A DNA stretch of 64,000 nucleotides, taken from assembly GCA_963665665.1 (NCBI GenBank), contig OY762428.1, forward strand, positions 3,144,323 to 3,208,322. The letters are read 5' to 3'. Below are positions 37 through 15,426 of the stretch, in pieces (within the stretch, counting starts at the first letter, position 1; every line of letters starts with the position of its first letter). The notes under the pieces are model-generated. The model was not told the DNA's origin, made no database searches, and was given only the letters and a program-made list of their open reading frames with translations. Position numbers and translations under genes: made by a program. The stretch is from Candidatus Kapaibacterium sp. Its GTDB lineage: Bacteria; Bacteroidota; Ignavibacteria; Kapaibacteriales; UBA2268.

Positions 37-903
37 ATGAATACATCGGACAAGAACCTGACGATTAATGGCATTGAAATGCAAAACGGAAGTAAATTCT
101 TTATTAAAAACAGCCAGGATTATGTTGGCCTTGCTTTCAACTCCGGAACTGATGTTGATATTATTATTGATTACATCGCTCCTCTTGAGGACATGAAATC
201 TGATGATATCGATACGCTGATAGTTCACACGGTTTGCTTCGAGTACAAGTATCAGATATCCGCCTCGGCTTTGATTAATAATATCATGGTGGAAGATTTT
301 GATTTTGGCAAACATGAAGTTAATACAAGCGTTTGCATAGAGGATATAAATAACGACGGACTGAAAATCACAAACTCCGGCGAATGGCCCCTTCTTCTGA
401 AATCCCTTGAAGGCGCTGCCGATCCGTTCTTTGTTGAAATTAATTCTCCATCTTTGCCAAAAGTACTTGAACCTGGTGAGGAAATATATTTCAAATCAAT
501 ATGCTTCTTCCCTAAGGACAGCGGCAGTTTCAGCGCCGAACTAACGTTTACATCCGATGCTATGAGCGGCGACAGTGTTATCAGCCTTACCGGGCTTGCA
601 TTCAAAGTAGATACTACAGGTATTATAGATAATCCTGCCGGCAGCTCCGATATCAGTGTTATCTCTATGCCTGTGTATTCAGATATTCTTGAAATTGGTT
701 TGCCTGAAATACCGGCAGGCGAGATCAACTTGTCAATATTCAACATAAACGGAATAAACACCGGCATTAACAGGAAAGTCATGATTCAGGATTCGCGTCA
801 GGCTGTAAATATCAACACCGGGAAACTTCCCGACGGAGTTTATATTATTCAGGTTTCTGCCGGATCGAGAACATATACTGCCAGATTTATAAGATTGAGA
901 TAG
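37..903 (+). CDS. Secreted protein with type-A T9SS C-terminal sorting domain. The N-terminus may continue upstream of the window, because no in-frame stop lies before the first ATG.
   Basis: C-terminal ~80 aa (INLSIFNINGINTG...GKLPDGVYIIQVSAGSRTYTARFIRLR) matches the Por_Secre_tail pattern seen on other cargo in this window. Confidence 0.5.
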   Translation: MNTSDKNLTINGIEMQNGSKFFIKNSQDYVGLAFNSGTDVDIIIDYIAPLEDMKSDDIDTLIVHTVCFEYKYQISASALINNIMVEDFDFGKHEVNTSVCIEDINNDGLKITNSGEWPLLLKSLEGAADPFFVEINSPSLPKVLEPGEEIYFKSICFFPKDSGSFSAELTFTSDAMSGDSVISLTGLAFKVDTTGIIDNPAGSSDISVISMPVYSDILEIGLPEIPAGEINLSIFNINGINTGINRKVMIQDSRQAVNINTGKLPDGVYIIQVSAGSRTYTARFIRLR

Positions 904-1099
904 TTTTTTTTATATGCGGATTTTCATAAACTCATCGGGTAACTAATTGTAAGCCGATGAGTTTTTTTATTTTTAGCAAAATGAAGATTCCGAAAGCACA
1001 GGGGATTGCTGCTAAAGCATGAACCATTGCCATGAATACAAAAACACAAGCTTAAGATTTTGCCTGAGCTTGTGTTTAAAATGGGAATTTATAAAGATA

Positions 1100-1966
1100 T
1101 TATAGTTTCTTCAAAGCCATCGAAATATTTTTTATTCCTTCGAAAGCCGGCAGAGGCAGGGAAATATTACCTGCCGGAACATCGGATTCTCTCGGGTTTA
1201 TCCTGATCAGCTTTGCATTTCGGCGTATGGAAGAAGATTCTGACTGATAGCGAACCGTAGGAACTGCTTTGCCGGCGCCAATTTCAATTATAACAAGTTT
1301 TTTGCCCTTTAATGAATCGAGCCAGTCATACATCCTTTTTTCCTGGAGGTCCGAACGGTATGAAAGCCAGCTCCAATCGCCAAACATGAGAATATTTGGC
1401 CTTGCCAGTGCGCCGCAATGCGGACATTTTGGCAGCGGGTCGGCTGCGAGCATAGTACTTTCGTCTACGTCGATATTTATATCATCGCCCCGCCATATTT
1501 CCTTGGTGCATGGTTCCGAACACTGAAAACTATGAATGGAACCGTGGCATTCCACTATTTTCTCCCTGTCGAAGCCTGCTTTCTGAAATTGTCCGTCAAC
1601 ATTGGATGTAAATGCAAAGTAACCATCAGGTTTTTTATCGCAAATCTCTCTTAATATTCTGAAACCGTCATGCGGGTTGGTATCCCTGTATAAATGCAAC
1701 CTGTGGCCGTAGAAACCCCATGCCAGGTTCGGATTTGTTTTGAACCACCTGGGATTGGCCATTTTCGTGAAAGAAATTCCTGCTTTCTCGAGTGGTGGGT
1801 ATGCTTTCCAGAATCCTTCATCACCCCTGAAATCGGGCAGGCCCGAATCAACACCGATTCCTGCACCGGCAAGAACAAACAAAGCGTCAGCCTGTTTGAT
1901 TTCGCGGGCAGCTTCTTCAATAACACCCTGTATATTCATTTGGCCCTCCGAAAATAGTAGTTTCAA
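1100..1966 (-). CDS. NAD-dependent protein deacylase, sirtuin (SIR2) family
   Basis: GAGIGVDSGLPDFRG Rossmann/NAD motif, catalytic HG, and a CSEPC...CPHC zinc tetrad. Length is typical of a standalone sirtuin. Confidence 0.8.
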   Translation of the reverse strand: MKLLFSEGQMNIQGVIEEAAREIKQADALFVLAGAGIGVDSGLPDFRGDEGFWKAYPPLEKAGISFTKMANPRWFKTNPNLAWGFYGHRLHLYRDTNPHDGFRILREICDKKPDGYFAFTSNVDGQFQKAGFDREKIVECHGSIHSFQCSEPCTKEIWRGDDINIDVDESTMLAADPLPKCPHCGALARPNILMFGDWSWLSYRSDLQEKRMYDWLDSLKGKKLVIIEIGAGKAVPTVRYQSESSSIRRNAKLIRINPRESDVPAGNISLPLPAFEGIKNISMALKKL

Positions 1967-2360
1967 TAAAAGATAAAAATCAAGTAATCAATGTTCGTGT
2001 TCCCGGGGCTGCCATCACAATTTTAACAAATAATCATTTCGCCTGTAAAATAATACTGAAAAAAATAATATTATAAAAGACTTATTTTTTTGAATATTAG
2101 TGAATATGATAGGATTATCTATCAATTTTTTGGTTTCCACCTTTAAAATCATTGATGTATAAAAACTTAATAATATTAGGCAATCCAAAGAAAAAAATTA
2201 CTATGTAACCATAATGTTGTAGAAATTTAAAATCAAAGCCGGGATTAATTTTAATGAATTAAATTTGCTGACATGAGCCCAAAAACAGAATTGTTTTGAT
2301 ACAAACAATTAAAATGCTAAATTCCGTTCGGAACATAATAACAACCTGCGATATTGAAAA

Positions 2361-3287
2361 ATGACTGAAACAAAATTATTTAAAGAAATTGCTGCGCTGG
2401 AAACAGAGCAGAGAAATCCAGTATCATCGAATATTGATAAAGCTTCTACAAGAGAAATTCTTGAAATAATTAATTCCCAGGATATGCTGGTGTCAAGAGC
2501 TGTTAGTGCCGAAATTGAGAATATTGGCAAAGCCGTGGACGGAATTGTTGATGCTTTCAGGGCAGGAGGGCGACTGTTCTATTTTGGCGCGGGTACCAGC
2601 GGAAGGCTCGGGGTGGTTGATGCATCCGAATGCCCGCCAACATTCGGAACTGACCCCGAAATGGTACAGGGAATTATCGCAGGCGGCAGAGAGGCTATGT
2701 TCGTTGCACAGGAGGGGGCAGAGGATTCCGAAGAAAACGGCGGAAATGAACTTGAGGAACGTGGAATTGACAAACCGGACGTTGTTTGCGGAATTGCCGC
2801 TTCCGGCAGGACGCCCTTTGTGAAAGGAGCCGTGAACGGCGCCAAGGAAAAGGGAATTTTCACAATAATGATATCCACGGTGCCAAGGCACAAAGTAATT
2901 TCCCTCGGGATAAATGCCGATGTTTATATATGTCCGGATGTAGGCCCGGAAGTTATCACAGGCTCAACAAGAATGAAATCCGGAACAGCGCAGAAAATGG
3001 TACTCAATATGCTTACAACAGCGGCAATGGTTCGAATGGGGAAAACTCACGGAAATATTATGGTTGACCTTCAGCTGACAAATGCCAAGCTTGTGGAAAG
3101 AGCGAAGAAGACAATAATGACGATTTGCAATGTTGATTACGCTACTGCCGGGGATCTGCTTGAGAAATCCCAAGGGCATGTAAAATCAGCCCTTGTAATG
3201 TCTCTTGGGGGAGTTGACTATAACAAAGCAAAGGAGTTGCTGATAAAAGCCAAAGGATTTGTCCGGGTGGCTATTGATATGGCCTGA
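2361..3287 (+). CDS. murQ: N-acetylmuramic acid 6-phosphate etherase (SIS domain)
   Basis: RLFYFGAGTSGRLGVVDASECPPTFG SIS motif; the N-terminal LETEQRNP...ILEIINSQD stretch is characteristic of MurQ; 308 aa. Confidence 0.85.
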   Translation: MTETKLFKEIAALETEQRNPVSSNIDKASTREILEIINSQDMLVSRAVSAEIENIGKAVDGIVDAFRAGGRLFYFGAGTSGRLGVVDASECPPTFGTDPEMVQGIIAGGREAMFVAQEGAEDSEENGGNELEERGIDKPDVVCGIAASGRTPFVKGAVNGAKEKGIFTIMISTVPRHKVISLGINADVYICPDVGPEVITGSTRMKSGTAQKMVLNMLTTAAMVRMGKTHGNIMVDLQLTNAKLVERAKKTIMTICNVDYATAGDLLEKSQGHVKSALVMSLGGVDYNKAKELLIKAKGFVRVAIDMA

Positions 3288-3343
3288 TAGGCAATCAATA
3301 TTCAGGCCCAGTTATAAAATTTTGCAAAAAGCAATAACAGGTA

Positions 3344-4015
3344 TTACCTGCCTTCAACTACCAAAATTTCCACTCTCCTGTTTTTTCTTCTGCCTTGTTC
3401 CGTATCATTTCTGGCAAGAGGGTTTGTTGCCCCACGGCCTGTAGAAAGGATAAGTCGCCTGCTTAACCCTTTACTTAACAGATAATTTACAACATTTTCA
3501 GCTCTGCTTTGGGATAATCTGAAATTTTTAGAAGTTGATAATGTATTATCAGAATATCCGACGATTCTAATTTCATATCCCTCGTTGGCTTTACAGAATT
3601 CAATAATTTTATCTAAGTATTCGATCAGTGCCGGGTACATATCAGTATCTTCAGTCTTTTGATATGGAAATTTCTCGGTTTTTTCGATAATAAGTGTGTC
3701 GGGTGTTTTGATCTCAGTTTCTACTAATGGATATTCTGTAATTTCTCCGTCAATCATTTCTTTGCTGGGGGATGAACTTAATACCATCGCCACAGGTTCT
3801 GACTTATGAATATGAGGCATTCTACTGTCTTCACCTGTTTCAGGCGGCTCCAACAGTTTTATTGAAGTATCTGCTTCTTTCTTTTCATTATCGGCGGTTT
3901 CAGGCGGCTCCAACAATTTTATTGAAGCATCTGCTTCTTTCTTTTCATTATCGGCAGTTTTGCATGATGAAAGAACTAAGATAGAAAGTATGATTAACGT
4001 CAATATTTGTCTCAT
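3344..4015 (-). CDS. OmpA/Pal-like C-terminal domain lipoprotein with an internal 20-aa tandem repeat
   Basis: Lipobox LSSCKT; C-terminal OmpA_C-like segment (RIVGYSDN...TGRGATNPLARNDTEQGRRKNRRVEILV); repeated ADNEKKEAD.SIKLLEPPET. Confidence 0.65.
   Translation of the reverse strand: MRQILTLIILSILVLSSCKTADNEKKEADASIKLLEPPETADNEKKEADTSIKLLEPPETGEDSRMPHIHKSEPVAMVLSSSPSKEMIDGEITEYPLVETEIKTPDTLIIEKTEKFPYQKTEDTDMYPALIEYLDKIIEFCKANEGYEIRIVGYSDNTLSTSKNFRLSQSRAENVVNYLLSKGLSRRLILSTGRGATNPLARNDTEQGRRKNRRVEILVVEGR
3841..3960. repeat. Two tandem 60-bp copies with 3 mismatches, in frame within the OmpA-like gene
   Basis: 3841-3900 and 3901-3960 are near-identical (caggcggctccaaca.ttttattgaag.atctgcttctttcttttcattatcggc.gttt). 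Confidence 0.9.
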
Positions 4016-4082
4016 TATAATATTCTCTGATTAATTGATAGTAAAAAGCCACTTTATAATTAATGTCATTATCAGAAACACC

Positions 4083-4595
4083 TTAATTTTTCATCACTAA
4101 AATTTCCACTCTTCGGTTTTTTCTTCTGCCTTCTTCGTTGTTATTTTTTGCTATAGGCTGAATTGGCCCCCTTCCTGTAGATAATATGTGCTTTTTGCTT
4201 ATTCCTTTGCTTATTAGATAATCCGTTACTTTTTTTGCTCTTATCTTCGATATTTCATAATTTTTTTCCATTGATAACGAGTTGTCGGAATGTCCGATTA
4301 TCCTGATTGTATATCCGTGGTTTGTTTGCAGGAAGCCGGCTACTTTATCTAAATATTCGATCAGAGAGTCATAAAGGTTACTGTCCTCAGGTTTATCATA
4401 ATAGAAAATTTCAATTTTTCCGATAACAATTGGAAGTGGCATTGTGATTTCAGCAGACTTTTGTGAAACGGGTTTTTCGCTGATATTATCCAGTTTTTTT
4501 ACTTCGCTGCCGGAATGGCTGCTATCTGATTCTGTAGTCTTGCATGATGTAAGTATCAAAACCGTAAGTAATATTAAGGTGGAAATATATTTCAT
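4083..4595 (-). CDS. OmpA/Pal-like C-terminal domain lipoprotein, paralog of the upstream gene
   Basis: Lipobox LTSCKT; C-terminal TIRIIGHSDN...TGRGPIQPIAKNNNEEGRRKNRRVEILV is very similar to 3344..4015. Confidence 0.65.
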   Translation of the reverse strand: MKYISTLILLTVLILTSCKTTESDSSHSGSEVKKLDNISEKPVSQKSAEITMPLPIVIGKIEIFYYDKPEDSNLYDSLIEYLDKVAGFLQTNHGYTIRIIGHSDNSLSMEKNYEISKIRAKKVTDYLISKGISKKHILSTGRGPIQPIAKNNNEEGRRKNRRVEILVMKN

Positions 4596-4683
4596 GTTCT
4601 TATCCCGGTAAATTCAATATCATGATTTTTAGTAATATAAATATCATTAAAATAATATACAAACAAAGATTTGCAATTTTTTA

Positions 4684-5691
4684 TCAACTCCATTTTGATT
4701 CAAACCACAAATAGGCCTTAGGATTGGTCATTTCAGGTGTAAAAGTAAATTTAAAATGGTGAAATCCCATAAATGTTTCTATCAATCTGATTTTTTGGTT
4801 TCCGCTAACAAGGTTTATTTCATTGTCGTGGTAAACAGGTTCCGGAATCATGGGAATAATCCCTGCAATATTATCAATTAGAAGGTTGCTGCTGATCATT
4901 TTATCGATTAGAATCTCGGTTTTTCTTTTCTGGATAAAATCAAAACTGTTATTGATAAAACATTCCACCCCGATTCTGTCCGATAGATTTCCGCCAACAA
5001 TGCTAAGCTGCAATGAAAATACATCGAAAAATTTATTATATAAAGAAACAAATTGTAACAGATTATCTATTCCGGTTTCGGAATATCCTGACAGGGTTAG
5101 AAAACTTTTAATATTCCCGGGATTAACCGAAGATATTAAAAGCCTGACTGCGTTGTTTTTACGGCCAAGCATTATGCCAATGCAATTCAGATTAGATTCC
5201 GGGGGCATAGCTGATACTATCGTTGATATTTGCTGAATGGTATTGGGATTGATTTCAGAACTTTCTTTTCCCATGGCTTTGCTTATGGCAGTGAAATAGT
5301 CCTTTGTTATATTGAAATTTTCCTGGTTTATACCCCAGAAATATGAAGGGTAAGGCACAAAATCATTCTTTCCGGTATCGTATTCATACCAGGTGAAATC
5401 AATATGATCCTTAAGTTCACTTGAAAAAAGTAAATTTGCTTTCAGATCAGTGTGTTTTGCGATATTATCTGAATGAAGAAGATTAACGGAGTTCCTGCCC
5501 AGCTTTGATAAAGATAATAGAAGGTCAGCCCCCGGAGTGCTAATATTGCATGGGAATTCAAAACCCGATAAAAAATATGCTAATTCGGCAGGTAAGCGGG
5601 AAGATAAATCAAATATTGCTTTTCTGCTTTTTGAAGAAATTGTATTGCAAATCCGCCGGAGAGGCGCTTCTATGTAGTCCGAAAGAACCAT
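4684..5691 (-). CDS. Hypothetical cytoplasmic protein (335 aa, no recognisable motifs), divergently transcribed from the Gly-rich peptide genes
   Basis: Long uninterrupted ORF with no signal peptide; a 155-bp AT-rich divergent intergenic region is shared with 5846..6307. Confidence 0.5.
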   Translation of the reverse strand: MVLSDYIEAPLRRICNTISSKSRKAIFDLSSRLPAELAYFLSGFEFPCNISTPGADLLLSLSKLGRNSVNLLHSDNIAKHTDLKANLLFSSELKDHIDFTWYEYDTGKNDFVPYPSYFWGINQENFNITKDYFTAISKAMGKESSEINPNTIQQISTIVSAMPPESNLNCIGIMLGRKNNAVRLLISSVNPGNIKSFLTLSGYSETGIDNLLQFVSLYNKFFDVFSLQLSIVGGNLSDRIGVECFINNSFDFIQKRKTEILIDKMISSNLLIDNIAGIIPMIPEPVYHDNEINLVSGNQKIRLIETFMGFHHFKFTFTPEMTNPKAYLWFESKWS

Positions 5692-5845
5692 AATTATTCA
5701 TTTCCAAAATTTTTTTTAGCTTAAATTAAAAATTTTCGTGATTTTTTTTACATTTTTCTTTATATTATTAAAAGTTAAACTGAATATAAAATCCGAAAGA
5801 CTATACTTTTGAAATTCCATTTACTAACAATCACGAGAGGATACA

Positions 5846-6307
5846 ATGGCAAAAATTGAATTCAAAGACCTCGAACAGAATGCAGAACTTGATGCCGATG
5901 CAATGAAAAAAGTTGTAGGCGCAGGCCTTTACGACAAATCAACCGGTGTATATGGAAATACCGGACATAAGCATGGCGGTGATGCTACAAATCAGGGCGA
6001 TCAGGCCGGCGGAGCCGGTGGAGCCGGTGGAAGTTCGCGGGGTTCAACCTGGGGCTGGAACCAGGGCGGCGGCGGCGGAAGCGCATCGCAATCTGCCGGT
6101 GGCGGCGGCGGTGGCTGGCTTAGTGCCGGCGGCGGCGGTTCCATTACTAATTCCAATGCTACAGGCGGAGCCGGTGGTGGTGTAACTGATATTGGCGCTG
6201 TAGGCGGTGCCGGCGGTGCCGGTGGCGCTGCTGTAGGAGCTATGGGCGGTGCTGTATCAGACCAGATTACTAATTCTGTCAGCATCCCGGTAACTATGAA
6301 TATCTAA
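5846..6307 (+). CDS. Glycine-rich peptide precursor with a double-glycine-type leader (bacteriocin/microcin-like)
   Basis: Leader MAKIEFKDLEQNAELDADAMKKVVGAG, then a ~125-aa core (about one third Gly, plus Ser/Thr/Asn/Ala, no Cys). The C-terminal SIPVTMNI is shared with 6898..7317. RBS-like gagagga lies upstream. Confidence 0.6.
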   Translation: MAKIEFKDLEQNAELDADAMKKVVGAGLYDKSTGVYGNTGHKHGGDATNQGDQAGGAGGAGGSSRGSTWGWNQGGGGGSASQSAGGGGGGWLSAGGGGSITNSNATGGAGGGVTDIGAVGGAGGAGGAAVGAMGGAVSDQITNSVSIPVTMNI

Positions 6308-6378
6308 GTTCATTTAAAGATGATTTTTTATACCCGGGATATTAGTATTCCGGGTTTATTTTTTTAACTGGAAAAAAA

Positions 6379-6867
6379 ATGGTAAGAATTATAGCAATCA
6401 TTGTATTACTGGCAATTACAGTTCTTGCTTGTGATGATGACAGTACATCGGCGAAGCCAACAGGGCAGGATACTTTAATAGCAACAATCAGCGGTTCAAA
6501 AGTTCTTGAATTTTCAGCACAGGGAGTGAACGTGAATATTTACCCTCAGGATGGTTTTGATCTTGCGCTATATTCCGGAACCATGATTGAAAATACAAGC
6601 CATATTTATTCTGTTTATTTTGCTCTTATCGACAGTAGTGATACTTACACTTTCGATTTGGCCGGCAGCGAAGGTTTTACCCGTTTTGAATATGATATAG
6701 GTATGGCCGGGGCAATTGTTTATGGCGACAGCATAAGTGGAAAAGTGGTTGTTTCTGAAGTTACAAAAGATTATATTAAAGGCAGTTTTGATTTCGAGGC
6801 GGTTAATAATAACGGTTCCGGAAAAGTAAGCATAACAAACGGCTATTTTGTTCGTTATAAAAATTAA
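6379..6867 (+). CDS. Small lipoprotein (162 aa) between the two Gly-rich precursor genes; candidate immunity or accessory protein
   Basis: Signal peptide plus lipobox (ITVLAC-DDD); no catalytic motifs. Confidence 0.5.
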   Translation: MVRIIAIIVLLAITVLACDDDSTSAKPTGQDTLIATISGSKVLEFSAQGVNVNIYPQDGFDLALYSGTMIENTSHIYSVYFALIDSSDTYTFDLAGSEGFTRFEYDIGMAGAIVYGDSISGKVVVSEVTKDYIKGSFDFEAVNNNGSGKVSITNGYFVRYKN

Positions 6868-6897
6868 ATACATTGAAAAACCTGAAGCGGAGTATAT

Positions 6898-7317
6898 ATG
6901 GCTAAGATTTCTCTTCACGACCTTGACCACAAGAAAGAAATAAGCAGCGAGGAAGCCGACAGTATTATCGGAGGAAGCAATAACTATGGCATGGCTGCCA
7001 ATACAGGAAGCAAAACCGGCGGGAATGCAACTAATAACGGCGATATTGCCGGAGGCGCAGGAGGGGGCGGAGGAAGCGCCACAGGTAATACTTATGGCAA
7101 CAACACGGCCGGATTTGGCGGATCGGCTAACCAATGGACTCCGTTTGGTTCAATTGCCGGATCGAATGTAACCGGCGGTGCTGGCGGTTCTGTAACAAAC
7201 ATTGGTGCCAAAGCCGGAGACGGTGGTGCGGGCGGAAATGCCGTGGGTGCTGAAGGCGGGGCTGTAACTGACAATATTATCACTGAGATAAATATTCCGG
7301 TAACGATGAATATTTAA
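6898..7317 (+). CDS. Glycine-rich peptide precursor with a canonical double-glycine leader, paralog of 5846..6307
   Basis: Leader MAKISLHDLDHKKEISSEEADSIIGG fits the LSxxELxxIxGG consensus. Gly/Asn/Ser/Thr/Ala-rich core and a C-terminal NIPVTMNI identical in its last 6 residues to the paralog. Confidence 0.65.
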   Translation: MAKISLHDLDHKKEISSEEADSIIGGSNNYGMAANTGSKTGGNATNNGDIAGGAGGGGGSATGNTYGNNTAGFGGSANQWTPFGSIAGSNVTGGAGGSVTNIGAKAGDGGAGGNAVGAEGGAVTDNIITEINIPVTMNI

Positions 7318-7512
7318 AATATTATAACTTAGACGTGATTGTTTTTAAGTATTTCAAATTTCCTGTCGATTAATTCATAAAATGGGCATTTGCAAGGAGT
7401 GTCCTGCTATGGATAATAATTATATTCCAATGAAACATTAGCCTGATAGTATCGTATAATAACCACCCGTCCGTTTTTAGTTATTTGTTTGGTTTAATTT
7501 GTCAGGTTATTT

Positions 7513-9753
7513 ATGAATAAACGCTACTTAATTATCGCGGGTATTTCTATTTCGCTGATAGCAATGGAAATTTCCTGGACTCGTATTTTTTCTGCCGAAT
7601 TCTTCTATACCTTTGCTTTTTTGATATTATCTACGGCTGTTCTCGGCATAGGGCTCGGAGGGCTTGCTCTTCGATATGTTAAAGCATTCAACCGTGACGT
7701 AGTGGCAAATCTGTCTATGTCATTGTCAGGTTTGTTTATTTTGCTGGGGCCTGTTCTTGTATTTCAGATAAATCCGGAATTCACAAAGATATTTGCCGGA
7801 TTAACTGATTTTCTGAAGGTATTCAGTTCCGGAATAATTCTCGGGCTTCCCTATTTCTTTGGGGGTATGGCACTCAGTTATTTATTTAAGAAAAATTACA
7901 GTGATATGCCCAGGATGTACATGTGGGATATGGCCGGTGCGGCATTTGGAGTAATAATTGCTATTGCTGCAATGAATATTTGCGGCACTCCGAGGGCTGT
8001 AACATATACTGCTATGCCCATTTTATTTGCCGGGCTTATTGCATCCGGGAATTGGCAAAAGATTATTCCTGCAATATTAATTATTGCAACTGCAATTGGC
8101 GGATTCTTTTCTGAAGATATGCTTCAAAAACAAAACAGGCAGGAAAGAGCAAAGGTTATTTATACTCATTGGGATGCAATGGCGAAAGTAAAAATGTACG
8201 ATTTCGAAGGCCAATACAGGGGGCTGAATATTGATAATGTTGCCAATTCACCGGTTTTTCCGTTTGACGGGGAAATTGACAGGCCGGATTCTTTGAAGTA
8301 TCATTTCAATATTAATGTCGGAAATTTGATTCGTATGTTCGATTCTTGTAGATTTCTTTCGCTTGGCGCCGGTGGCGGCGGTGATGTCCTAATGGCATTG
8401 CAGGAAGGCGCTGCCGAGATTCACGCCGTAGAGGTGGTTCCGCATATTAATGATATGATGACAGAAGGGATGCTATCAGAATATACCGGCAATATGTATA
8501 ATTTACCACAGGTGAAAGTTGTAACAGAAGATGCCCGGGCTTACAGCCGAATGTTCGAAAATAAATTTGATATAATATATTCTTTAAGTTCCAATTCCTG
8601 GGCTGCACTTGCCTCAGGGGCATTTGCCCTTGCCGAGAATTACCTGTTCACCGAGGAGGCTTTCCGGGATTACTGGAATGCTTTAAGCGATAAAGGGTTT
8701 ATGAGCATGGAACATCAGTTCTATATGCCGAGAATTGCAACAATGGTGGAACAGGCGCTTTGGAAAGAAGGGGTTGACGATCCTGACAAACACTTTGCTA
8801 TATATCATCTTCCGCACATGAGAAGAATGCTTCTTCTGCTTTCAAAAAGAGAATTGACTCCTGAGCTTTTGGCTGCTGCTTACGGTAGTTCTGTACCAAA
8901 CAGGAGGGACTATAAGTATTTACTTTATCCGGCAGCTGATTCACTGAAAGGCAACCTGATAAACAGGATAGTTACCGAAGGCTGGGAAAATGTACAGGAT
9001 TCTGCACATGCAGATATTTCTCCATGTTCCGATGACAGGCCATTCATAGCTCAGCTCGGTTTGTGGAAAAATTTCAAATCTGACAATATGGAACAACTGC
9101 CGCAATACGAATTTATGGGTTATCCGTTGTCCAAGCTGATCATTTTAATGATATTGGCATTAGCGCTGATAATTATACTACCGTTAAATTTAATACCTTT
9201 TGCGTTTAAATCTTCAAGGCTCGGGATTCGGCCATGGATGTATTTTTTTATGATAGGTATGGGATTTATGATAATAGAGGTGATATTAATTCAGCAGTAC
9301 TCCCTGTTTATCGGGCCATCTGTATGGAGCATTATTACCGTGCTTTTCACCATGCTGATTGCTTCCGGTATCGGCAGCCGCTATTCGGAAATGTTTGCTG
9401 ATAAAATTGTGTTCATGGCAATAATTGCCTGGGTAGCGCTCAATATTCTTGTTTTTACAAACCTGTTCGGAGTTTTTGGCGGGCTTCCTTTAGTACCGCG
9501 TATGCTGATTTCAGCAATAATGATAGCCCCGGGTGGTTTTTTCATGGGTATGCCTTTTCCAAAAGCTGCACAGAAAGTCGGTGAAAATGTGGACTGGGGC
9601 TTTGCCGTGAATGGTATGGCCTCGGTTCTTGGTTCTACCGGGATACTTCTGGTAGCATTCGAGTTCGGATTTGATATATCACTTGTTGTGGGCGCCTTGT
9701 GCTATTTAATTGCTATGTTTTTATCGGGTTTTAATAAACCTGTACAGGCATAA
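7513..9753 (+). CDS. Polytopic membrane protein with a fused spermidine-synthase-like (aminopropyltransferase) domain
   Basis: N- and C-terminal multi-TM regions; central LSLGAGGGGDVLMAL...VEVVPHINDMM...DIIYSLSSNSW resembles the SpeE GGGDG and acidic-site motifs. Confidence 0.6.
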   Translation: MNKRYLIIAGISISLIAMEISWTRIFSAEFFYTFAFLILSTAVLGIGLGGLALRYVKAFNRDVVANLSMSLSGLFILLGPVLVFQINPEFTKIFAGLTDFLKVFSSGIILGLPYFFGGMALSYLFKKNYSDMPRMYMWDMAGAAFGVIIAIAAMNICGTPRAVTYTAMPILFAGLIASGNWQKIIPAILIIATAIGGFFSEDMLQKQNRQERAKVIYTHWDAMAKVKMYDFEGQYRGLNIDNVANSPVFPFDGEIDRPDSLKYHFNINVGNLIRMFDSCRFLSLGAGGGGDVLMALQEGAAEIHAVEVVPHINDMMTEGMLSEYTGNMYNLPQVKVVTEDARAYSRMFENKFDIIYSLSSNSWAALASGAFALAENYLFTEEAFRDYWNALSDKGFMSMEHQFYMPRIATMVEQALWKEGVDDPDKHFAIYHLPHMRRMLLLLSKRELTPELLAAAYGSSVPNRRDYKYLLYPAADSLKGNLINRIVTEGWENVQDSAHADISPCSDDRPFIAQLGLWKNFKSDNMEQLPQYEFMGYPLSKLIILMILALALIIILPLNLIPFAFKSSRLGIRPWMYFFMIGMGFMIIEVILIQQYSLFIGPSVWSIITVLFTMLIASGIGSRYSEMFADKIVFMAIIAWVALNILVFTNLFGVFGGLPLVPRMLISAIMIAPGGFFMGMPFPKAAQKVGENVDWGFAVNGMASVLGSTGILLVAFEFGFDISLVVGALCYLIAMFLSGFNKPVQA

Positions 9754-11874: not shown

Positions 11875-12174
11875 TCACGAAATATTGATTCCTTTCATTA
11901 TAAGCTGTTCCTGCAGGTGGTTCTTAAGCACCCTGCCCCGATAGGTTAAGCGTGAGAAGCTGCATTCCCGACCGTTCAGAATAGTGCCGCGCAAAAAGCC
12001 CTGCTCAATAAGCCGGCGGGCGCCTCGGTATATATCCTGATCGCTGTATTTATTCAGTAATTTATTTGTTTCCGATACAGATTCGAGAATAAGATAAAGT
12101 AACTCATCGGAAAATTTTGGTTCCGGTTCCATGTCGTCGAAAAATGGCTGTTCAAATTCAATACTTCCTATCAT
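11875..12174 (-). CDS. Small hypothetical protein (99 aa), translationally coupled to the upstream S24 peptidase gene
   Basis: ATGA start/stop overlap with 12171..12782. Confidence 0.35.
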   Translation of the reverse strand: MIGSIEFEQPFFDDMEPEPKFSDELLYLILESVSETNKLLNKYSDQDIYRGARRLIEQGFLRGTILNGRECSFSRLTYRGRVLKNHLQEQLIMKGINIS

Positions 12175-12782
12175 TGATTTCCTCCCGGTTCAATTCCAAT
12201 AACTTTAGCAAAAATTCTGAAATTCCTGCATTTTTCAATCGGGACGGGCGGGTATTTGCGGTTTTCGGATACAAGATACTTTCCGTTTCGTTCCACGATA
12301 TATTTTTTAATAAACAGCCTGCCGTCCACTTCTGCAATTATTATATCTCCGCTTTTGCACTTCTTTCCCGGTGCTATAATTGCCTTCATGCCTTCGAAAA
12401 TTCCTGCTCCCTGCATTGAATCCCCGTATATCATGCATTCCTTCAGCTCTGAAATATTGATATTTTCAGGTATGCCGGGCATTTCAGTTTCTGAATAAGA
12501 CAGGCGAAAGGGACGCAGCGGGGCATTGAGCCCGAGTATCGTGCCTGTCAGTATGTATTCCGCGTCTTCTTTGGCGTTTTCAAATGCATCCGACCCGCGT
12601 TGCAGGCATTCCCTGCTTAGTATTTCAAGCCTTTCAATATCAGGCCTGCCCGATTCGGCACCGCCGAGCAGGTATTTCCTGCTTAAGCGGTATATATCGG
12701 CATCCGGGGCCATTGCTGCCCAATCCCTGAATTCAGCCTTAGTCATCATTTTTCTTTCTCTGGTTAAGAATGTCGCCTGCAA
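12171..12782 (-). CDS. S24 (LexA/CI-like) serine peptidase domain protein with a ~110-aa unknown N-terminal extension and no HTH
   Basis: C-terminal ECMIYGDSMQGAGI...GDIIIAEVDGRLFIKKY supplies a Ser/Lys dyad in S24 spacing. Confidence 0.6.
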   Translation of the reverse strand: MQATFLTRERKMMTKAEFRDWAAMAPDADIYRLSRKYLLGGAESGRPDIERLEILSRECLQRGSDAFENAKEDAEYILTGTILGLNAPLRPFRLSYSETEMPGIPENINISELKECMIYGDSMQGAGIFEGMKAIIAPGKKCKSGDIIIAEVDGRLFIKKYIVERNGKYLVSENRKYPPVPIEKCRNFRIFAKVIGIEPGGNQ

Positions 12783-13161
12783 CGGCGCTTATCAGTTCCA
12801 GCTTTTCGTCCATACTCATTTTTTTTGTATCCAGGCTGGCACTGCCAATCGGGATAACCTTATCGTTATGAAATACTTCACTTTCTTCAAGGCGTTCTTT
12901 CAGTATTTTGCCGGCACGGTTGGCAGCAAAAATACTTTCCTCGCCCGTAAGTATAAAAACCGGGTTTATACCTTTGCGGTAGAGCTTAACAAGAAGTTCC
13001 GGGGGAACTCCGGAACGCCCGTTTTCGTAATTGCGGATCTTGTCCTGGCTGACATTAAGCAATTGGGCAAACTGCGAAGCCGACAGCTTCACGCCCTCGT
13101 TGAATATGTTTACCCTGATTTCCCGCAGCCTTCTGCCAATTTCTATTCCTATCTTATCCAT
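12739..13161 (-). CDS. XRE-family helix-turn-helix transcriptional regulator (Cro/CI-like)
   Basis: N-terminal LSASQFAQLLNVSQDKIRNYENGRS HTH; immediately upstream of, and overlapping, the S24 peptidase gene. Confidence 0.65.
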   Translation of the reverse strand: MDKIGIEIGRRLREIRVNIFNEGVKLSASQFAQLLNVSQDKIRNYENGRSGVPPELLVKLYRKGINPVFILTGEESIFAANRAGKILKERLEESEVFHNDKVIPIGSASLDTKKMSMDEKLELISAVAGDILNQRKKNDD

Positions 13162-13294
13162 ATTTTATAAACTATTTTTAAAATAAACAAAAATAATTTA
13201 CTTGGAATATAAGCAATATATACATATATTACAAGTAAAAATTACCAAAAATAATTGTATATATTACATTTGTAATAAAATAAGGTAAAAAATC

Positions 13295-13534
13295 ATGCAA
13301 CAATCAAAGCAAAATGCAAGTGCTGCCGACAGGCTGGAGAAGGCCGGGGAAATTCTCGGGAGTGCCCTGAAGGAAGCCGAGAGCAAAAAGCTGATAAGCC
13401 CCACTTTAAGGTCGGACCTTGAGTTTATAATTGGCGATTTTCTGTTTTCATCAAGCGGGAACGATGCTGAAATCAACTTTCTTATGTTAAACAATAATGG
13501 CTGGGAGCCTGACGGTTATGAACAGTGTTTTTGA
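13295..13534 (+). CDS. Small hypothetical protein (79 aa)
   Basis: ORF with a plausible RBS (aaggtaaaaaatcATG); overlaps an antisense 76-aa ORF, so coding status is uncertain. Confidence 0.3.
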   Translation: MQQSKQNASAADRLEKAGEILGSALKEAESKKLISPTLRSDLEFIIGDFLFSSSGNDAEINFLMLNNNGWEPDGYEQCF

Positions 13535-13784
13535 TCAGATACGCGAAGATGAGCTGACTGACGATTTGAAGCTGGTATCAAAAGTTGTAGGAATTGATGC
13601 TGTAAGAAAAATATTGAAAGATTTTGGCGGCCTGAGTTTTTACATCCCAAAGCTAACACGGCTGGATGGTTTCGTGGACAGGTACATGAAGCAAAACAGG
13701 AATAAAACAGCCAAGCAGATAGCTTTGGACCTTGGCGTGTCCGAGCATTACCTGCGCAGTGTCAGGAAAAGGTTTGGTAATTGA
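13497..13784 (+). CDS. Mor-family (phage Mu middle operon regulator-like) transcriptional activator
   Basis: FGGLSFYIPK followed by the C-terminal HTH AKQIALDLGVSEHYLRSVRKR matches the Mor/C family pattern (FGGxxxYIPK...ELAxxYGxSxxxIxRI). Confidence 0.55.
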   Translation: MAGSLTVMNSVFDQIREDELTDDLKLVSKVVGIDAVRKILKDFGGLSFYIPKLTRLDGFVDRYMKQNRNKTAKQIALDLGVSEHYLRSVRKRFGN

Positions 13785-13806
13785 CAATAGAATACAGGAT
13801 AGAAAA

Positions 13807-14133
13807 TTATCTCATTGATATTCCGAGGTAAGCATGAACCATGCATGCCCAGTCGCCAATGATTTTTCTGTCATCAGTCAGTTCTTTTCGCCAGTCGGTA
13901 TTTTGCCCGGCCTGGCTCATGTTTCTTGCAAGGGCATCAATATTTGAAATAAGGGCGTTATGTGCAGCCGTTCTGTAACTGTCTTTTTCTTTTTTATCAT
14001 CAACAGAAAGAAAGGCCCAGTCAGTCCTTATTCTGGCATATTTAACTACAGAATCGAGCAGTTCAGTTTTCAGGTAATCATTATCAGATTTCATAAGGGA
14101 ATTGTAAATATCAACAACTGAATCCAAAAGCAT
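13807..14133 (-). CDS. Hypothetical protein (108 aa)
   Basis: ORF downstream of the UmuD-like genes on the same strand. Confidence 0.4.
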   Translation of the reverse strand: MLLDSVVDIYNSLMKSDNDYLKTELLDSVVKYARIRTDWAFLSVDDKKEKDSYRTAAHNALISNIDALARNMSQAGQNTDWRKELTDDRKIIGDWACMVHAYLGISMR

Positions 14134-14368
14134 GTATTTCTCCTTGACATAAATTGTACATCAGGAAAAAGATAATAATTAACCATTACCATGCAAGTTC
14201 TTTTTAGTTAATAATTTATATTTTTAAATACTGTAATTTTAGTGTTGATATACTTATTGTTCCGGCAAATTGATTTTTAATTGCTGAAAATGGATTAGTA
14301 CTGACGAATTACCTGATAGCCCGGATAGATAAAATAATCGAGCCTGCCCGGGGGAAAACCATAATCAG

Positions 14369-14821
14369 CTAAATGAGTGAATGTACCACGTGGCGTACTT
14401 TGCCCTGTATGGTGAAAGACATTTCCGGGCTTATCTCAATTGGCAGGAAACGGCTGTTTTCCGATTGCAGATAATAAACACCTTTTTTTTCAATCAGCCT
14501 TTTTACTGTCAGCTCACCGTTCAGAGACGATATAACGATATCGCCGGGGCTGGCAGTATTACATTCCTCAACGATGAGTATATCCCCGTCGAATATATTT
14601 ATATCTATCATACTTTCGCCGTTAACCCTTACAAGATAGAAATTATCCTGGTTTCCTGGCAGAAGGTATTTATAAAGGTCGAGGTCGCCGACATTATTTA
14701 CCCCGGGAATTTTTCCGGCGGGGAATGCTGCATCGAGCAGGGGAGCTTCGAAGCGAAACCTCCTTCCTATCGAACCAAATTTATCAGCCGATAATTTTTT
14801 GCTTTTATAAGAAACTTTCAT
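14369..14821 (-). CDS. UmuD-like S24 peptidase (predicted active; Ser in GESM, Lys in TVKRL)
   Basis: LVRVNGESMIDINIFDGDILIVEE...NGELTVKRL is closely similar to UmuD/LexA catalytic-domain motifs. Confidence 0.7.
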   Translation of the reverse strand: MKVSYKSKKLSADKFGSIGRRFRFEAPLLDAAFPAGKIPGVNNVGDLDLYKYLLPGNQDNFYLVRVNGESMIDINIFDGDILIVEECNTASPGDIVISSLNGELTVKRLIEKKGVYYLQSENSRFLPIEISPEMSFTIQGKVRHVVHSLI

Positions 14822-14846
14822 TTGAAAATATGTGTATTCTTGTTCT

Positions 14847-15275
14847 CTAAATGCTGTGAATTACTTTAGTTACAACACCAACCGGTTTCAGGCCGATATT
14901 TTCTTCATTGATTTCCAAAGGCATAACACTGCTGTCCGGAGCTTCCAGGTATGGCCAGTGCCTTCCTTCCCTGTATATTTTGATAGTGAACGATCCATTG
15001 ACAGATACAACCACAATTCTTCCGTCGGCTGCTTCTATTGCTGTATCAACAACAAGTATATCTCCGTCGGATATATCTAAGTTATAACCGTCAATACCAC
15101 TTATCCTTGCAAAAAAAGTAGCCTTCGGATGTTCTATCAGAAGGTCGTTCAAATCAATTTCCTTGTCGATTTTATCATCAACAGGTACAGGTATTCCTGC
15201 TGAAACAGACATGTTAAAGAATGGCATTTTAGCGCCGGAATAAGGCTTGAAGCCAAATACCTCAACGATTTCCAT
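14847..15275 (-). CDS. UmuD-like S24-fold protein with the nucleophilic Ser replaced by Asp (predicted pseudo-peptidase)
   Basis: SVSAGIPVPV (A-G cleavage-site-like), IDLNDLLIEHPKATFF (very UmuD-like), then ARISGIDGYNLDISDGDILVVD. Aligned against GESM of its neighbour the Ser position is Asp; the Lys in FTIKIY is retained. Confidence 0.6.
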   Translation of the reverse strand: MEIVEVFGFKPYSGAKMPFFNMSVSAGIPVPVDDKIDKEIDLNDLLIEHPKATFFARISGIDGYNLDISDGDILVVDTAIEAADGRIVVVSVNGSFTIKIYREGRHWPYLEAPDSSVMPLEINEENIGLKPVGVVTKVIHSI

Positions 15276-15426
15276 TTTATTGTCCCCTTTTGCTGCTAAT
15301 AATACATGCCGCTAATGCGACACATTAAGTATTATAATATAATGGAAAAGGCAGCACTTATGCAAATTTTTTTTTCGGGTAGTAATTTTTTTTTAATAAT
15401 TGTTTCAATTTTTTAGAAATAGAATG

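Follow-up and report, generated by a model that had tools for sequence, protein, structure and literature searches.

A four-gene cassette encoding two leadered glycine-rich peptides, a lipoprotein, and a prenyltransferase-fold protein in an uncultured FCB-group bacterium

Results

The 64-kb window analyzed here (the whole stretch of DNA under study) holds a genuine four-gene cassette composed of two leadered glycine-rich peptides, a lipoprotein, and a gene for a protein of the prenyltransferase fold. We consider it somewhat more probable than the alternatives combined (about 0.55) that the locus supplies the precursors and tailoring functions for a dispersed RiPP/microcin-like secretion system, the host being an uncultured member of the FCB group. 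The two exported peptides of ~10-11 kDa are probably prenylated and possibly cross-linked, and the product is possibly a bacteriocin. The cassette looks like a new modified secreted peptide system because the peptides of its relatives adjoin a peptide-cleaving exporter and ATP-grasp enzymes.

Organization of the cassette

The cassette consists of the following features:
4684-5691, minus strand: prenyltransferase-like gene (335 aa), divergent from pepA, ABBA-fold
5692-5845, no strand: AT-rich divergent intergenic region, read from the sequence; presumed promoters of the prenyltransferase-like gene and pepA
5846-6307, plus strand: pepA, 153-aa A-type precursor; leader 5846-5923, ending VVGA, and a 127-aa glycine-rich core
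6332-6365, plus strand: intrinsic-terminator-like hairpin (10-bp stem and T-run) between pepA and the lipoprotein gene
6379-6867, plus strand: lipoprotein (162 aa) with signal peptide and Cys at VLAC, then DDD; candidate immunity/accessory protein
6898-7317, plus strand: pepB, 139-aa B-type precursor; leader 6898-6975, ending IIGG, and a 113-aa glycine-rich core

All four ORFs, including the divergent 335-aa gene and the intervening lipoprotein gene, were located by their ORF positions where the initial annotation had placed them. Region 5692-5845 presumably acts as a promoter region; a TAnnTTTG motif lies 42 nt 5' of the pepA ATG, which is immediately preceded by GAGG. A hairpin with a T-run, of other sequence, occupies the same post-pepA position in the lineages L002, L010, and L033, making four lineages with the window; a hairpin after the first structural gene is usual in bacteriocin and lantibiotic operons. 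Proteins with Por_Secre_tail C-terminal sorting domains flank the cassette, in agreement with the T9SS-bearing FCB-group host that had been proposed.

Leaders and cores of the two peptides

The two precursors were recognized from the start as paralogs, and their similarity (52% identity, E = 6e-21) is beyond chance. Their leaders are MAKIEFKDLEQNAELDADAMKKVVGA, with cleavage before G, in pepA and MAKISLHDLDHKKEISSEEADSIIGG, with cleavage before S, in pepB. Double-glycine leaders are hydrophilic stretches of 15-30 aa that end in GG, GA, or GS and carry hydrophobic residues at -4, -7, and -12, and both leaders were found to be of this form: each is hydrophilic and 26 aa long, pepA ends in GA with V(-4), M(-7), and L(-12), and pepB ends in GG with I(-4), A(-7), and I(-12). 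In the alignment, the GA of pepA is in register with the GG of its homologs, and the hydrophobic residues at -4 and -12 and the GG/GA terminus are kept across 12 family members, which bears out the original reading of the leaders as double-glycine export signals. Both leaders also contain an L(x)4L/M segment.

Profile searches gave weaker signals. Whole pepA and pepB had no match at E ≤ 1 in Pfam and NCBIfam, and leader-only queries against 18,950 NCBIfam models matched solely double-glycine-leader families, all below cut-off. The window leaders matched TIGR04149 (E = 0.036 and 0.076; 14.0 and 12.9 bits, cut-off 25) and the lacticin-481-family lantibiotic model (E = 0.12), while the leader from lineage L014 matched TIGR01847 (13.6 bits, cut-off 15.7) and TIGR03949. 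The search with a TIGR01847-like leader model put forward in the initial annotation yielded no match above a curated cut-off, for the whole peptide or the leader alone.

The pepA core (127 aa, 11.2 kDa, pI 5.3) contains 35% Gly and the pepB core (113 aa, 10.3 kDa, pI 4.1) 28%; both lack Cys and share the terminal IPVTMNI, as first described. Their length exceeds that of typical RiPP cores ~3-10-fold. The differences among the 12 members of the peptide family concentrate at the third codon position (3198, 2700, and 5849 at positions 1, 2, and 3), the pattern to be expected of real coding sequence. AF2 predicted no structure for the peptide (pLDDT 34.5). Among possible ring-forming residues, only K39, T65, T136, and D125 are invariant in the family; a graspetide ring pattern is not recognizable because D125 is the sole invariant acidic residue and K39 the sole invariant Lys. 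The family alignment has no strictly invariant aromatic residue.

The divergent 335-aa protein

The 335-aa protein has the ABBA (alpha-beta-beta-alpha) peptide-prenyltransferase fold, a ten-stranded antiparallel barrel of alpha-beta-beta-alpha repeats. Its description as lacking recognizable motifs held at the level of sequence, where Pfam and NCBIfam gave no match at E ≤ 1 (including Trp_DMAT, PTase_Orf2, and LynF/TruF/PatF), but not at the level of the fold, which is recognizable. Identity to solved prenyltransferases is 5-11%, no prenyltransferase Pfam model was matched at E ≤ 0.01 by any of 50 family members, and a profile search of PDB sequences with the family found nothing.

At ~22% pairwise identity, the family keeps 17 near-invariant residues, every one of which is retained by the window protein. 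Several (E44, D55, E102, D104, R176, R182, E242, H311, K313, K324, and Y326) lie on or beside predicted strands, where E102/D104, H311/K313, and K324/Y326 form i/i+2 polar pairs, accompanied by R176 and R182. Squalene-hopene-cyclase-like domains are present as fusions in two members, P0076 and P0168, with Pfam scores above the gathering cut-off, and a weaker match in P0141 stays below it; this supports isoprenoid chemistry. Distant members adjoin double-glycine precursors of the NHLP (L035) and Nif11 (L036) types. Three lineages have the gene in this divergent position with only 26-29% identity, and so it is kept by selection. The ABBA fold of the protein and the ties of its family to RiPP precursors make the locus more RiPP-like than microcin-like. 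ABBA folds may nevertheless be catalytically dead, as in PatF.

The lipoprotein between the peptides

The small lipoprotein proposed at 6379-6867 begins with a signal peptide that leads into a lipobox Cys (VLAC followed by DDD), an arrangement kept in four homologs. Orthologs in L002, L010, L012, and L033 are 33-38% identical. Acidic residues follow the Cys in four of five homologs, a pattern resembling the Bacteroidota surface-export signal. No match was found among PDB sequences, and below threshold the protein matched DUF6252 (E = 4e-5) and the Riean_0653 family (E = 1.8e-7). Riean_0653, its only named relative, is tied to haemolysis, not to immunity (PMC7881567).

Occurrence of the cassette in other lineages

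The peptide family is present in five other lineages. The search for peptide-lipoprotein-peptide triplets in related genomes that had been suggested was successful: they occur in four other uncultured lineages, with the order A-lipoprotein-B kept in the window, L002, L010/L017, and L033. In L012, the lipoprotein-pepB part is preserved, and the contig begins within the gene preceding the lipoprotein. A-type orthologs were found in L002, L010 (two copies), L033, and L014, and B-type orthologs are P0002-P0005 and the 139-aa peptide of L033. The genes neighboring the triplets have relatives named Ignavibacteria or Kapaibacterium.

The prenyltransferase-like gene is also present in two of the four triplet-bearing lineages. 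Neither it nor the lipoprotein is obligatory, because L002 has the triplet without the former and L014 has peptides without the latter. The genomic context of the cassette differs from lineage to lineage, as it does for accessory modules. In L002, the triplet adjoins a CPBP/Rce1-like protein, whose family includes known bacteriocin immunity proteins.

The exporter and ATP-grasp operon

The operon of the relatives comprises genes for an HlyD-like protein, a PCAT (cNMP-C39-ABC exporter), a protein of ~760 aa, a TolC-like protein, and a pair of ATP-grasp proteins, of which the 341-346-aa one is a diverged ATP-grasp paralog. The peptides lie 0-4 kb from these genes in three lineages, which upholds the initial view of pepA and pepB as RiPP/bacteriocin-like double-glycine precursors. 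In L017, the operon runs HlyD-like, PCAT, 759-aa, TolC-like, 341-aa, and ATP-grasp; pepA2 is located 183 bp past the ATP-grasp gene, and a triplet with the prenyltransferase-like gene 3 kb off. In L012, the gap between pepB and the ATP-grasp gene is 25 bp. In L014/L031, a tandem pair of peptides is separated by ~4 kb from the HlyD-like and PCAT genes at the start of an ATP-grasp-bearing operon. The PCATs retain the C39 motif QHDExDCGAACLTM, with the Cys intact wherever the N-terminus is available, and carry two cNMP-binding domains.

The nearest solved relatives of the ATP-grasp protein are the graspetide synthetases PsnB (E = 6e-15), CdnC, and MdnC. Its matches to TIGR04187, TIGR04184, and TIGR04185 are weak and far below cut-offs, and DSR stands in place of the DFR motif. 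The relatives of the gene are annotated Ignavibacteria or Kapaibacterium. TIGR04500-like PpiC-related proteins adjoin the peptides in L017 and L014; in rosaritide biosynthesis, the graspetide synthetase needs a TIGR04500 PpiC-like partner (PMC13097080).

The genome of the window has only the last four operon genes (754-aa, TolC-like, 346-aa, and 362-aa ATP-grasp), at a separate locus, L016. There, the operon begins at the 754-aa gene, without the HlyD-like and PCAT genes that precede its counterpart in L017, L030, and L031; C-terminal PCAT fragments precede the ATP-grasp module in L012 and L032. As noted initially for 20 kb on either side, the cassette has no C39 ABC exporter nearby: none was found in the 64-kb window or 10 kb upstream, and the only ABC match in the window was a 257-aa ATPase (55103-55876). 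A PCAT, HlyD-like, or PpiC-related gene was likewise found neither in the window nor within 10 kb of the L016 module. We attribute this to dispersal of the system, part of the export/maturation operon being at another locus of the same genome. The system may be incomplete in this genome, the PCAT search having covered the window, 10 kb upstream, and the surroundings of L016 in a genome of 5.46 Mb.

Discussion

Proposed maturation and action

The sequences show that pepA and pepB carry hydrophilic leaders of the double-glycine type, 26 aa long. Both precursors would then be prenylated in the cytoplasm by the ABBA-fold enzyme from the divergent gene, which probably binds the leader at its L(x)4L/M segment by analogy with MppC-like ABBA prenyltransferases, which modify Nif11-leader precursors in a leader-dependent manner (PMC12715784). 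The likely acceptor would be a core side chain, the best candidate being a near-conserved central Trp or Tyr. More tentatively, the ATP-grasp ligase pair from L016 may add ester or amide cross-links. Judging from the neighboring genes in three lineages, a cNMP-C39-ABC PCAT with HlyD-like and TolC-like partners would cut after GG/GA and export anionic glycine-rich peptides of ~11.2 and ~10.3 kDa across both membranes. The conserved A/B pairing suggests that the two act jointly, and their target may be the envelope of another cell, as for two-peptide bacteriocins and class II microcins. The lipoprotein, on a shared transcript with pepB, would shield the producer or aid it.

Alternative explanations

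A non-antibiotic role is rather unlikely but deserves weight: the peptides would be exported and modified as surface, matrix, adhesion, or signaling factors, with the lipoprotein as an outer-membrane anchor, receptor, or chaperone. The mature size of 10-11 kDa, ~30% Gly, and predicted disorder fit structural or fibre-forming proteins; the acidic residues behind the lipoprotein Cys resemble a surface-export signal; and the two cNMP-binding domains of the PCATs suggest regulated secretion. Prenylated secreted peptides may also be pheromones, as is ComX. The sole named relative of the lipoprotein is needed for haemolysis and is no immunity protein (PMC7881567). Against such a role, a conserved A/B pair flanking one small protein resembles two-peptide bacteriocin operons, the CPBP/Rce1-like neighbor of the L002 triplet belongs to a family with known bacteriocin immunity members, and the cassette is rare, patchy, and shifting between genomic contexts, as conflict systems are.

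An unmodified class II microcin-like two-peptide bacteriocin, only cleaved and exported while the prenyltransferase-like and ATP-grasp enzymes serve other substrates, would account for anionic, Gly-rich, Cys-free cores behind double-glycine leaders, for an exporter in relatives that resembles CvaAB/TolC, for the absence of the prenyltransferase-like gene from L002, and for an ATP-grasp module unlinked in the genome of the window. We give it little credence, because the prenyltransferase-like gene has been maintained at one position in three lineages and its family repeatedly adjoins double-glycine RiPP precursors, the ATP-grasp pair is near the peptides in three differently arranged loci, and the peptides resemble no Pfam or NCBIfam bacteriocin or microcin family. 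It is equally improbable that the cassette is an orphan remnant in this genome, its exporter lost and its peptides neither matured nor secreted. The truncated start of the L016 operon, the PCAT fragments in L012 and L032, and the lack of a PCAT in the window would fit such decay; however, none of the four ORFs is disrupted, the prenyltransferase-like protein has lost no near-invariant residue, the peptides retain conserved leaders and C-termini, and a PCAT may occupy a third locus of the genome.

Implications

If the reading as a dispersed, modified secretion system is true, it extends large glycine-rich double-glycine-exported peptides, so far those of enterobacterial class II microcins, to an uncultured FCB-group lineage, ties such peptides to prenylation and ATP-grasp ligation on unusually long cores, and assigns a fold and likely role to ~170 unannotated proteins. 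This ~170-protein family appears to be a sequence-divergent peptide prenyltransferase branch beside short double-glycine, NHLP, and Nif11 leaders. Peptide prenyltransferases are wanted as lipidation biocatalysts, and the four-gene cassette would offer a defined, testable unit for heterologous expression. In its most far-reaching and still doubtful form, the proposal is an undescribed RiPP class of Ignavibacteria/Kapaibacterium-like hosts, in which a glycine-rich pair of ~10-11 kDa would be prenylated on both members by a new divergent, leader-dependent ABBA family, cross-linked by the ATP-grasp pair, exported via a cyclic-nucleotide-gated PCAT/HlyD-like/TolC-like system, and countered by a dedicated surface lipoprotein; such products would be lipidated, cross-linked "mega-microcins" outside Proteobacteria.

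Comparison with known systems

With the class II microcins (colicin V, MccE492, H47, and M; CvaAB/TolC export), the peptides share a double-glycine-type leader and an anionic, glycine-rich, largely unstructured core of several kDa, and the exporter of the relatives likewise combines a C39 PCAT, an HlyD-like adaptor, and a TolC-like outer-membrane protein. However, pepA and pepB have no sequence homology with them in Pfam or NCBIfam; at 113-127 aa, the cores exceed those of microcins in length; a hydrophobic C-terminus (...SIPVTMNI) stands where microcins have a Ser-rich siderophore-acceptor tail; no mceCDIJ- or mchA-type genes lie nearby; the host is an FCB-group bacterium and not one of the Enterobacterales; the immunity candidate is a lipoprotein and not a small membrane protein; and prenyltransferase-like and ATP-grasp enzymes are associated. 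Membership in the class IIb microcins, which the peptides had initially been said to recall, is not supported on the grounds of homology, tail, gene content, host phylum, and immunity type.

The prenyltransferase-like gene resembles MppC-like and cyanobactin F-type prenyltransferase genes (PagF, PirF, DciF) in adjoining double-glycine-leader precursors, and the MppC-like genes further in that distant family members sit by Nif11 and NHLP precursors and that the L(x)4L/M segment here is like the one needed by MppC. It differs in its 5-11% identity to solved prenyltransferases, with no Pfam or NCBIfam prenyltransferase model matching the protein. MppC-like enzymes act on 7-aa lanthipeptide cores on ~77-aa Nif11 leaders and F-type enzymes on cyclic cyanobactins, whereas the putative substrates here are glycine-rich cores of 113-127 aa on 26-aa leaders.

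Rosaritide, a group 21 graspetide, is made from a precursor with a TIGR04187 ATP-grasp, a TIGR04500 PpiC-like partner, and a PCAT (PMC13097080). Like the group 21 graspetides and the microviridins, which have two ATP-grasp ligases, relatives of the window cluster a PsnB-like ATP-grasp, a second ATP-grasp paralog, a TIGR04500-like protein, and a PCAT; this ATP-grasp adjoins the peptides in L012 and L017, and that of L014/L031 lies within the operon starting ~4 kb away. The differences are HMM scores that all fall well short of the family cut-offs (37 against 350 bits and 80 against 180 bits), the DSR motif, a core without a recognizable donor/acceptor pattern, and, in the genome of the window, ATP-grasp genes unlinked from the peptides and no PpiC-like genes found. 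The cassette departs from two-peptide (class IIb) bacteriocins and two-component lantibiotics in having peptides of about three times the length, a diderm host, and a lipoprotein accessory between the two peptides; the pairing of two paralogous double-glycine-leader peptides with one small accessory gene, and the hairpin after the first structural gene, are common to both.

Two paralogous glycine-rich precursors with double-glycine leaders

The cassette encodes two leader-bearing paralogous precursors (PepA, A-type; PepB, B-type), a conserved lipoprotein, and a conserved protein with the α-β-β-α (ABBA) prenyltransferase fold that keeps the residues invariant in its family. All four open reading frames of the initial annotation were found at exactly the positions proposed there. 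The peptide genes and the features around them are:

3344-4595, − strand: genes for two OmpA-family lipoproteins (223 and 170 aa) in tandem, immediately downstream of the prenyltransferase-like gene
5846-6307, + strand: pepA, 153 aa
6332-6365: hairpin with a 10-bp stem and a T-run, directly after pepA
6898-7317, + strand: pepB, 139 aa
7513-9753: gene for a 746-aa membrane protein

PepA and PepB share 52% identity (E 6e-21), and each begins with a hydrophilic leader of 26 aa. Sec and Tat signal peptides were rejected because these leaders have no hydrophobic core. The PepB leader ends in IIGG and the PepA leader in VVGA-G; in the family alignment, the GA of PepA falls in register with the GG of every homologue, which makes it a GA version of the double-glycine site and bears out the proposal that one of the two precursors carries a variant leader. 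The predicted cores comprise 127 aa in PepA (35% Gly, 11.2 kDa, pI 5.3) and 113 aa in PepB (28% Gly, 10.3 kDa, pI 4.1), and both, as first described, are Cys-free and end in IPVTMNI. Only K39, T65, T136, and D125 are invariant and qualify as cross-link candidates.

Pfam and NCBIfam scans with full-length PepA and PepB returned zero matches; leader-only queries gave weak, sub-threshold matches to double-glycine families. The AlphaFold2 model of the peptide, built on a 6-sequence alignment, was uninformative (pLDDT 34.5). Across 12 family members, differences at codon positions 1, 2, and 3 numbered 3198, 2700, and 5849; this third-position excess indicates real coding sequence rather than a by-product of GGN-rich DNA, and spurious reading frames were rejected on this ground together with conservation across lineages. 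Also rejected were T9SS cargo, since a C-terminal sorting domain is missing and the conserved tail spans only 7 residues, and RTX or PE-PGRS-type repeat proteins, given the lack of family matches and the short, leader-bearing nature of the proteins. We consider that PepA and PepB are double-glycine-leader peptides exported by an ABC exporter with a C39 peptidase domain (PCAT), with a probability of roughly 0.8.

Rarity and gene order of the peptide family

Among 5.8 billion protein clusters searched, only five were related to PepB, PepB itself included. In a 15-billion-protein collection, the exact sequences of PepB, the lipoprotein, and the 335-aa prenyltransferase-like protein were present and that of PepA was absent, which may reflect a residue difference in another assembly or a different gene call. 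Related loci had the following arrangements, in which the peptide-lipoprotein-peptide triplet that the initial annotation had suggested looking for in other genomes was present in L002, L010/L017, and L033.

Peptide and lipoprotein genes in related loci
L002: pepA' (158 aa), lipoprotein (178 aa), pepB' (141 aa)
L010/L017: 155 aa, 164 aa, 142 aa, plus a third, A-type copy (pepA2)
L012: lipoprotein, then pepB; the contig begins inside the gene preceding the lipoprotein
L033: 148 aa, 169 aa, 139 aa
L014 (Ignavibacteria MAG): two tandem A-like peptides, no lipoprotein

Wherever both peptide genes were readable, the order was A-type, lipoprotein, B-type. Each type forms a conserved subfamily, and the two are distinguished by leader pattern and by a GGGG-GW(L/F)SA-GGGG insert. 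Two metagenome scans yielded no further peptide relatives: alignment-derived patterns gave 600 stretches, dominated by GC-rich chance matches and none of them related, and the pattern GGAGG.A.G-N48-P[VIM]T[ML] gave 12 loci of 67-74% GC, all unrelated. A scan of the genome collection found only 2 relatives, one of them on a contig labelled 'uncultured Hyphomicrobiales' (CAZIXJ010000290.1). This contig is probably mis-binned, since its peptide is almost identical to L010 pepA2; its neighboring genes do not look alphaproteobacterial.

The divergent gene encodes a protein with an ABBA prenyltransferase fold

The 335-aa product had been described as an unknown partner without motifs. It indeed gave zero Pfam and NCBIfam matches; its fold, however, was recognizable as that of an ABBA prenyltransferase. 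The AlphaFold2 model, based on a 50-sequence alignment, was confident (pLDDT 90.4, pTM 0.90) and showed a repeating helix-helix-strand-strand pattern, and the top 44 Foldseek matches in the PDB were all ABBA aromatic prenyltransferases. Fold comparison alone allowed this assignment, and sequence-only searches gave nothing useful: a word-indexed search retrieved only the query, none of 50 family members tested had a meaningful Pfam match, and PDB sequences searched with a profile yielded zero matches for the family. Relatives were obtained by exhaustive phmmer (171 remote homologues among 1.84 billion representatives), and tblastn aligned the protein with a 337-aa product in L010, whose gene is divergent from pepA there (26% identity, E 2e-22). 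At a mean family identity of about 22%, 17 residues are near-invariant, and the window protein has 17/17. They include i/i+2 pairs on predicted strands (E102/D104, H311/K313, and K324/Y326) as well as R176, R182, and E242, a pattern that would be expected for residues lining a diphosphate-binding barrel, with side-chain orientation inferred.

The genomic context of family members supports the prenyltransferase assignment. The gene of one distant member (P0073) is divergent from those of three NHLP-type precursors with leaders of the form ...ELxDEQLExVAGG, and that of another member (P0074) lies within a cluster of four Nif11 precursors, an HlyD-like protein, a C39 PCAT, radical SAM enzymes, and TfuA; around a third (P0069), the four-gene cassette is repeated. 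Three long members (P0076, P0141, and P0168) have squalene-hopene-cyclase Pfam matches in a C-terminal extension, two of the three above the gathering cut-off, which suggests prenylation followed by terpene cyclization on peptides. NCBI names one long member 'prenyltransferase/squalene oxidase repeat-containing protein', and in P0198 the prenyltransferase-like domain is fused to a 2OG-Fe(II) oxygenase. The two precursor-associated loci are:

L035, 6237-7647, − strand: three NHLP-type precursors with ...VAGG leaders, beside P0073 at 8001-9128
L036, 1-17080: large RiPP cluster with an HlyD-like protein, a C39 PCAT, a second ABC protein (973 aa), DUF7005, P0074, and TfuA

The cores of the L035 precursors are short, one being rich in Trp, Pro, and Arg (LSILPGGWPPRWPIRIPTRPRWPGLPIPRTPW); together with P0073, these precursors may represent an uncharacterized prenylated RiPP family. 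The four Nif11 precursors of L036 have Ala/Val/Thr-rich cores and are accompanied by three radical SAM enzymes.

Leader-dependent ABBA prenyltransferases acting on Nif11-leader precursors are documented: MppC transfers a geranyl group onto Trp C5 and requires the L(x)4L motif of the leader, and MppC-like genes are co-localized with Nif11 and NHLP precursors (PMC12715784 and supplement). An L(x)4(L/M) segment comparable to that motif is present in the A-type leaders, which carry EL-DAxA-(L/M)-KKVVGG.

Export and ATP-grasp genes are linked to the cassette in relatives

In line with the initial annotation, we found no C39 ABC transporter within the 64-kb window or 10 kb upstream. In relatives, a C39 PCAT type I-like exporter and a graspetide-type ATP-grasp pair are encoded in physical linkage with parts of the cassette. 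The L017 cassette lies within a cluster of about 16 kb:

Gene 1: HlyD/AprE-like protein, 466 aa
Gene 2, 1943-5005: PCAT, 1020 aa, with cNMP-binding, C39, and ABC domains
Gene 3: 759-aa protein
Gene 4: TolC-like protein, 563 aa, with OEP domain
Gene 5: 341-aa protein
Gene 6: ATP-grasp protein, 358 aa
Gene 7: pepA2
Gene 8: PpiC-related protein, 436 aa (TIGR04500: 80 bits, cut-off 180)
Gene 9: rotamase
Genes 10-13: pepB, lipoprotein, pepA, and the prenyltransferase-like gene

Genes 1-6 recur as a six-gene operon in L030 (PCAT gene at 1908-4964) and, truncated, in the Kapaibacterium MAG L032. In L012, pepB and the ATP-grasp gene of this operon are 25 bp apart. The Ignavibacteria MAG has the HlyD-like and PCAT genes (PCAT at 707-3736 of L031) about 4 kb from its two peptide genes, after which come genes for a PpiC-related protein and a rotamase. 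The PCATs have the canonical C39 motif QHDExDCGAACLTM, preceded by two tandem cNMP-binding domains; these domains, and a sigma-54 activator gene inserted in the L031 operon, hint at regulated secretion.

The best solved relatives of the ATP-grasp protein are the graspetide synthetases PsnB (E 6e-15), CdnC, and MdnC, although its DFR motif reads DSR; the adjacent 341-346-aa protein is a diverged ATP-grasp paralogue. In the rosaritide system, the graspetide synthetase depends on a PpiC-like partner (TIGR04500), and a PCAT is encoded in the same cluster (PMC13097080). The window's own genome has an orthologous module at a second locus (L016), encoding a 754-aa protein, a TolC-like protein (566 aa), a 346-aa protein, and an ATP-grasp protein (362 aa, P0016), which is not preceded by the HlyD-like and PCAT genes. 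At 301-4117 of this contig (ENA), several housekeeping genes (for EF-P, biotin carboxylase, and PNP oxidase) are split into 2-3 adjacent reading frames, which look like frameshift errors of a long-read assembly; single-residue details from this assembly need care.

Proposed pathway and alternative interpretations

We propose that the ABBA enzyme would prenylate the precursors, probably in a leader-dependent manner, with a near-conserved central Trp or Tyr as candidate acceptor (G-W/Y-L/F in A-type and Q-W in most B-type peptides). Cross-links may be added by the ATP-grasp pair. The PCAT would cut after GG or GA, with HlyD-like and TolC-like partners providing the route out of the cell, where the A and B products could act jointly; the lipoprotein might protect or assist the producer. 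That the peptides are post-translationally modified appears somewhat favored; a bacteriocin role with immunity conferred by the lipoprotein is tentative.

The cassette resembles class II microcins and two-peptide bacteriocins in export logic and peptide character, and prenylated and graspetide RiPPs in its associated enzymes. An interpretation as unmodified, microcin-like peptides is weakened by the position of the prenyltransferase-like gene, which is conserved in three lineages at 26-29% identity. The products could instead serve a surface, matrix, or signaling role; peptide size, predicted disorder, and the regulated exporter agree with this, as does the lipoprotein's only named relative, the sub-threshold match Riean_0653, a protein on which haemolysis by Riemerella depends rather than an immunity protein (PMC7881567). 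It is also possible that the cassette in the window's genome is a remnant without exporter; against this, its four reading frames and all conserved residues are intact. The building blocks of the system are already known (double-glycine leader, PCAT, ABBA prenyltransferase, and ATP-grasp). The unusually large precursors, the sequence-novel branch of prenyltransferase-like proteins, the conserved intervening lipoprotein, and the host from an uncultured FCB-group lineage are new. Tests against curated bacteriocin, microcin, prenyltransferase, and graspetide HMMs were all negative or sub-threshold, giving no family membership, and no description of these peptides or this enzyme combination was found in the literature.

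Lipoprotein, hairpin, and flanking genes

In agreement with the small lipoprotein of the initial annotation, the 162-aa protein between PepA and PepB has a signal peptide followed by a lipobox Cys (VLAC|DDD), and 4 homologues keep these features; PDB sequences searched with its profile yielded zero matches. Lipoprotein genes are spaced 9-30 bp from pepB, and the two are therefore probably co-transcribed. A hairpin occupies the same position after pepA in L002, L010, and L033, with a sequence different from that in the window. The OmpA-family lipoprotein genes and the gene for the 746-aa membrane protein were not counted as parts of the cassette because they are not kept beside it in other lineages.

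About 5-8 kb downstream of the cassette (window ~12170-15280; 14977-18376 in L001, the contig covering this region), a cluster of small genes contains three S24 peptidase (LexA or repressor-like) reading frames and an HTH_31 protein and may be a prophage or mobile-element remnant. L010 has an IS21-type transposase pair about 6 kb from the cassette, and L033 an integrase fragment. Of the lineages with the triplet, only L002 lacks the prenyltransferase-like gene. The upstream neighbors of its triplet encode a 1319-aa protein with no Pfam match (3582-7541, − strand) and a CPBP/Rce1-like intramembrane protease (7665-8378, + strand) of PF02517, the family that comprises CAAX prenyl proteases and some bacteriocin immunity proteins.
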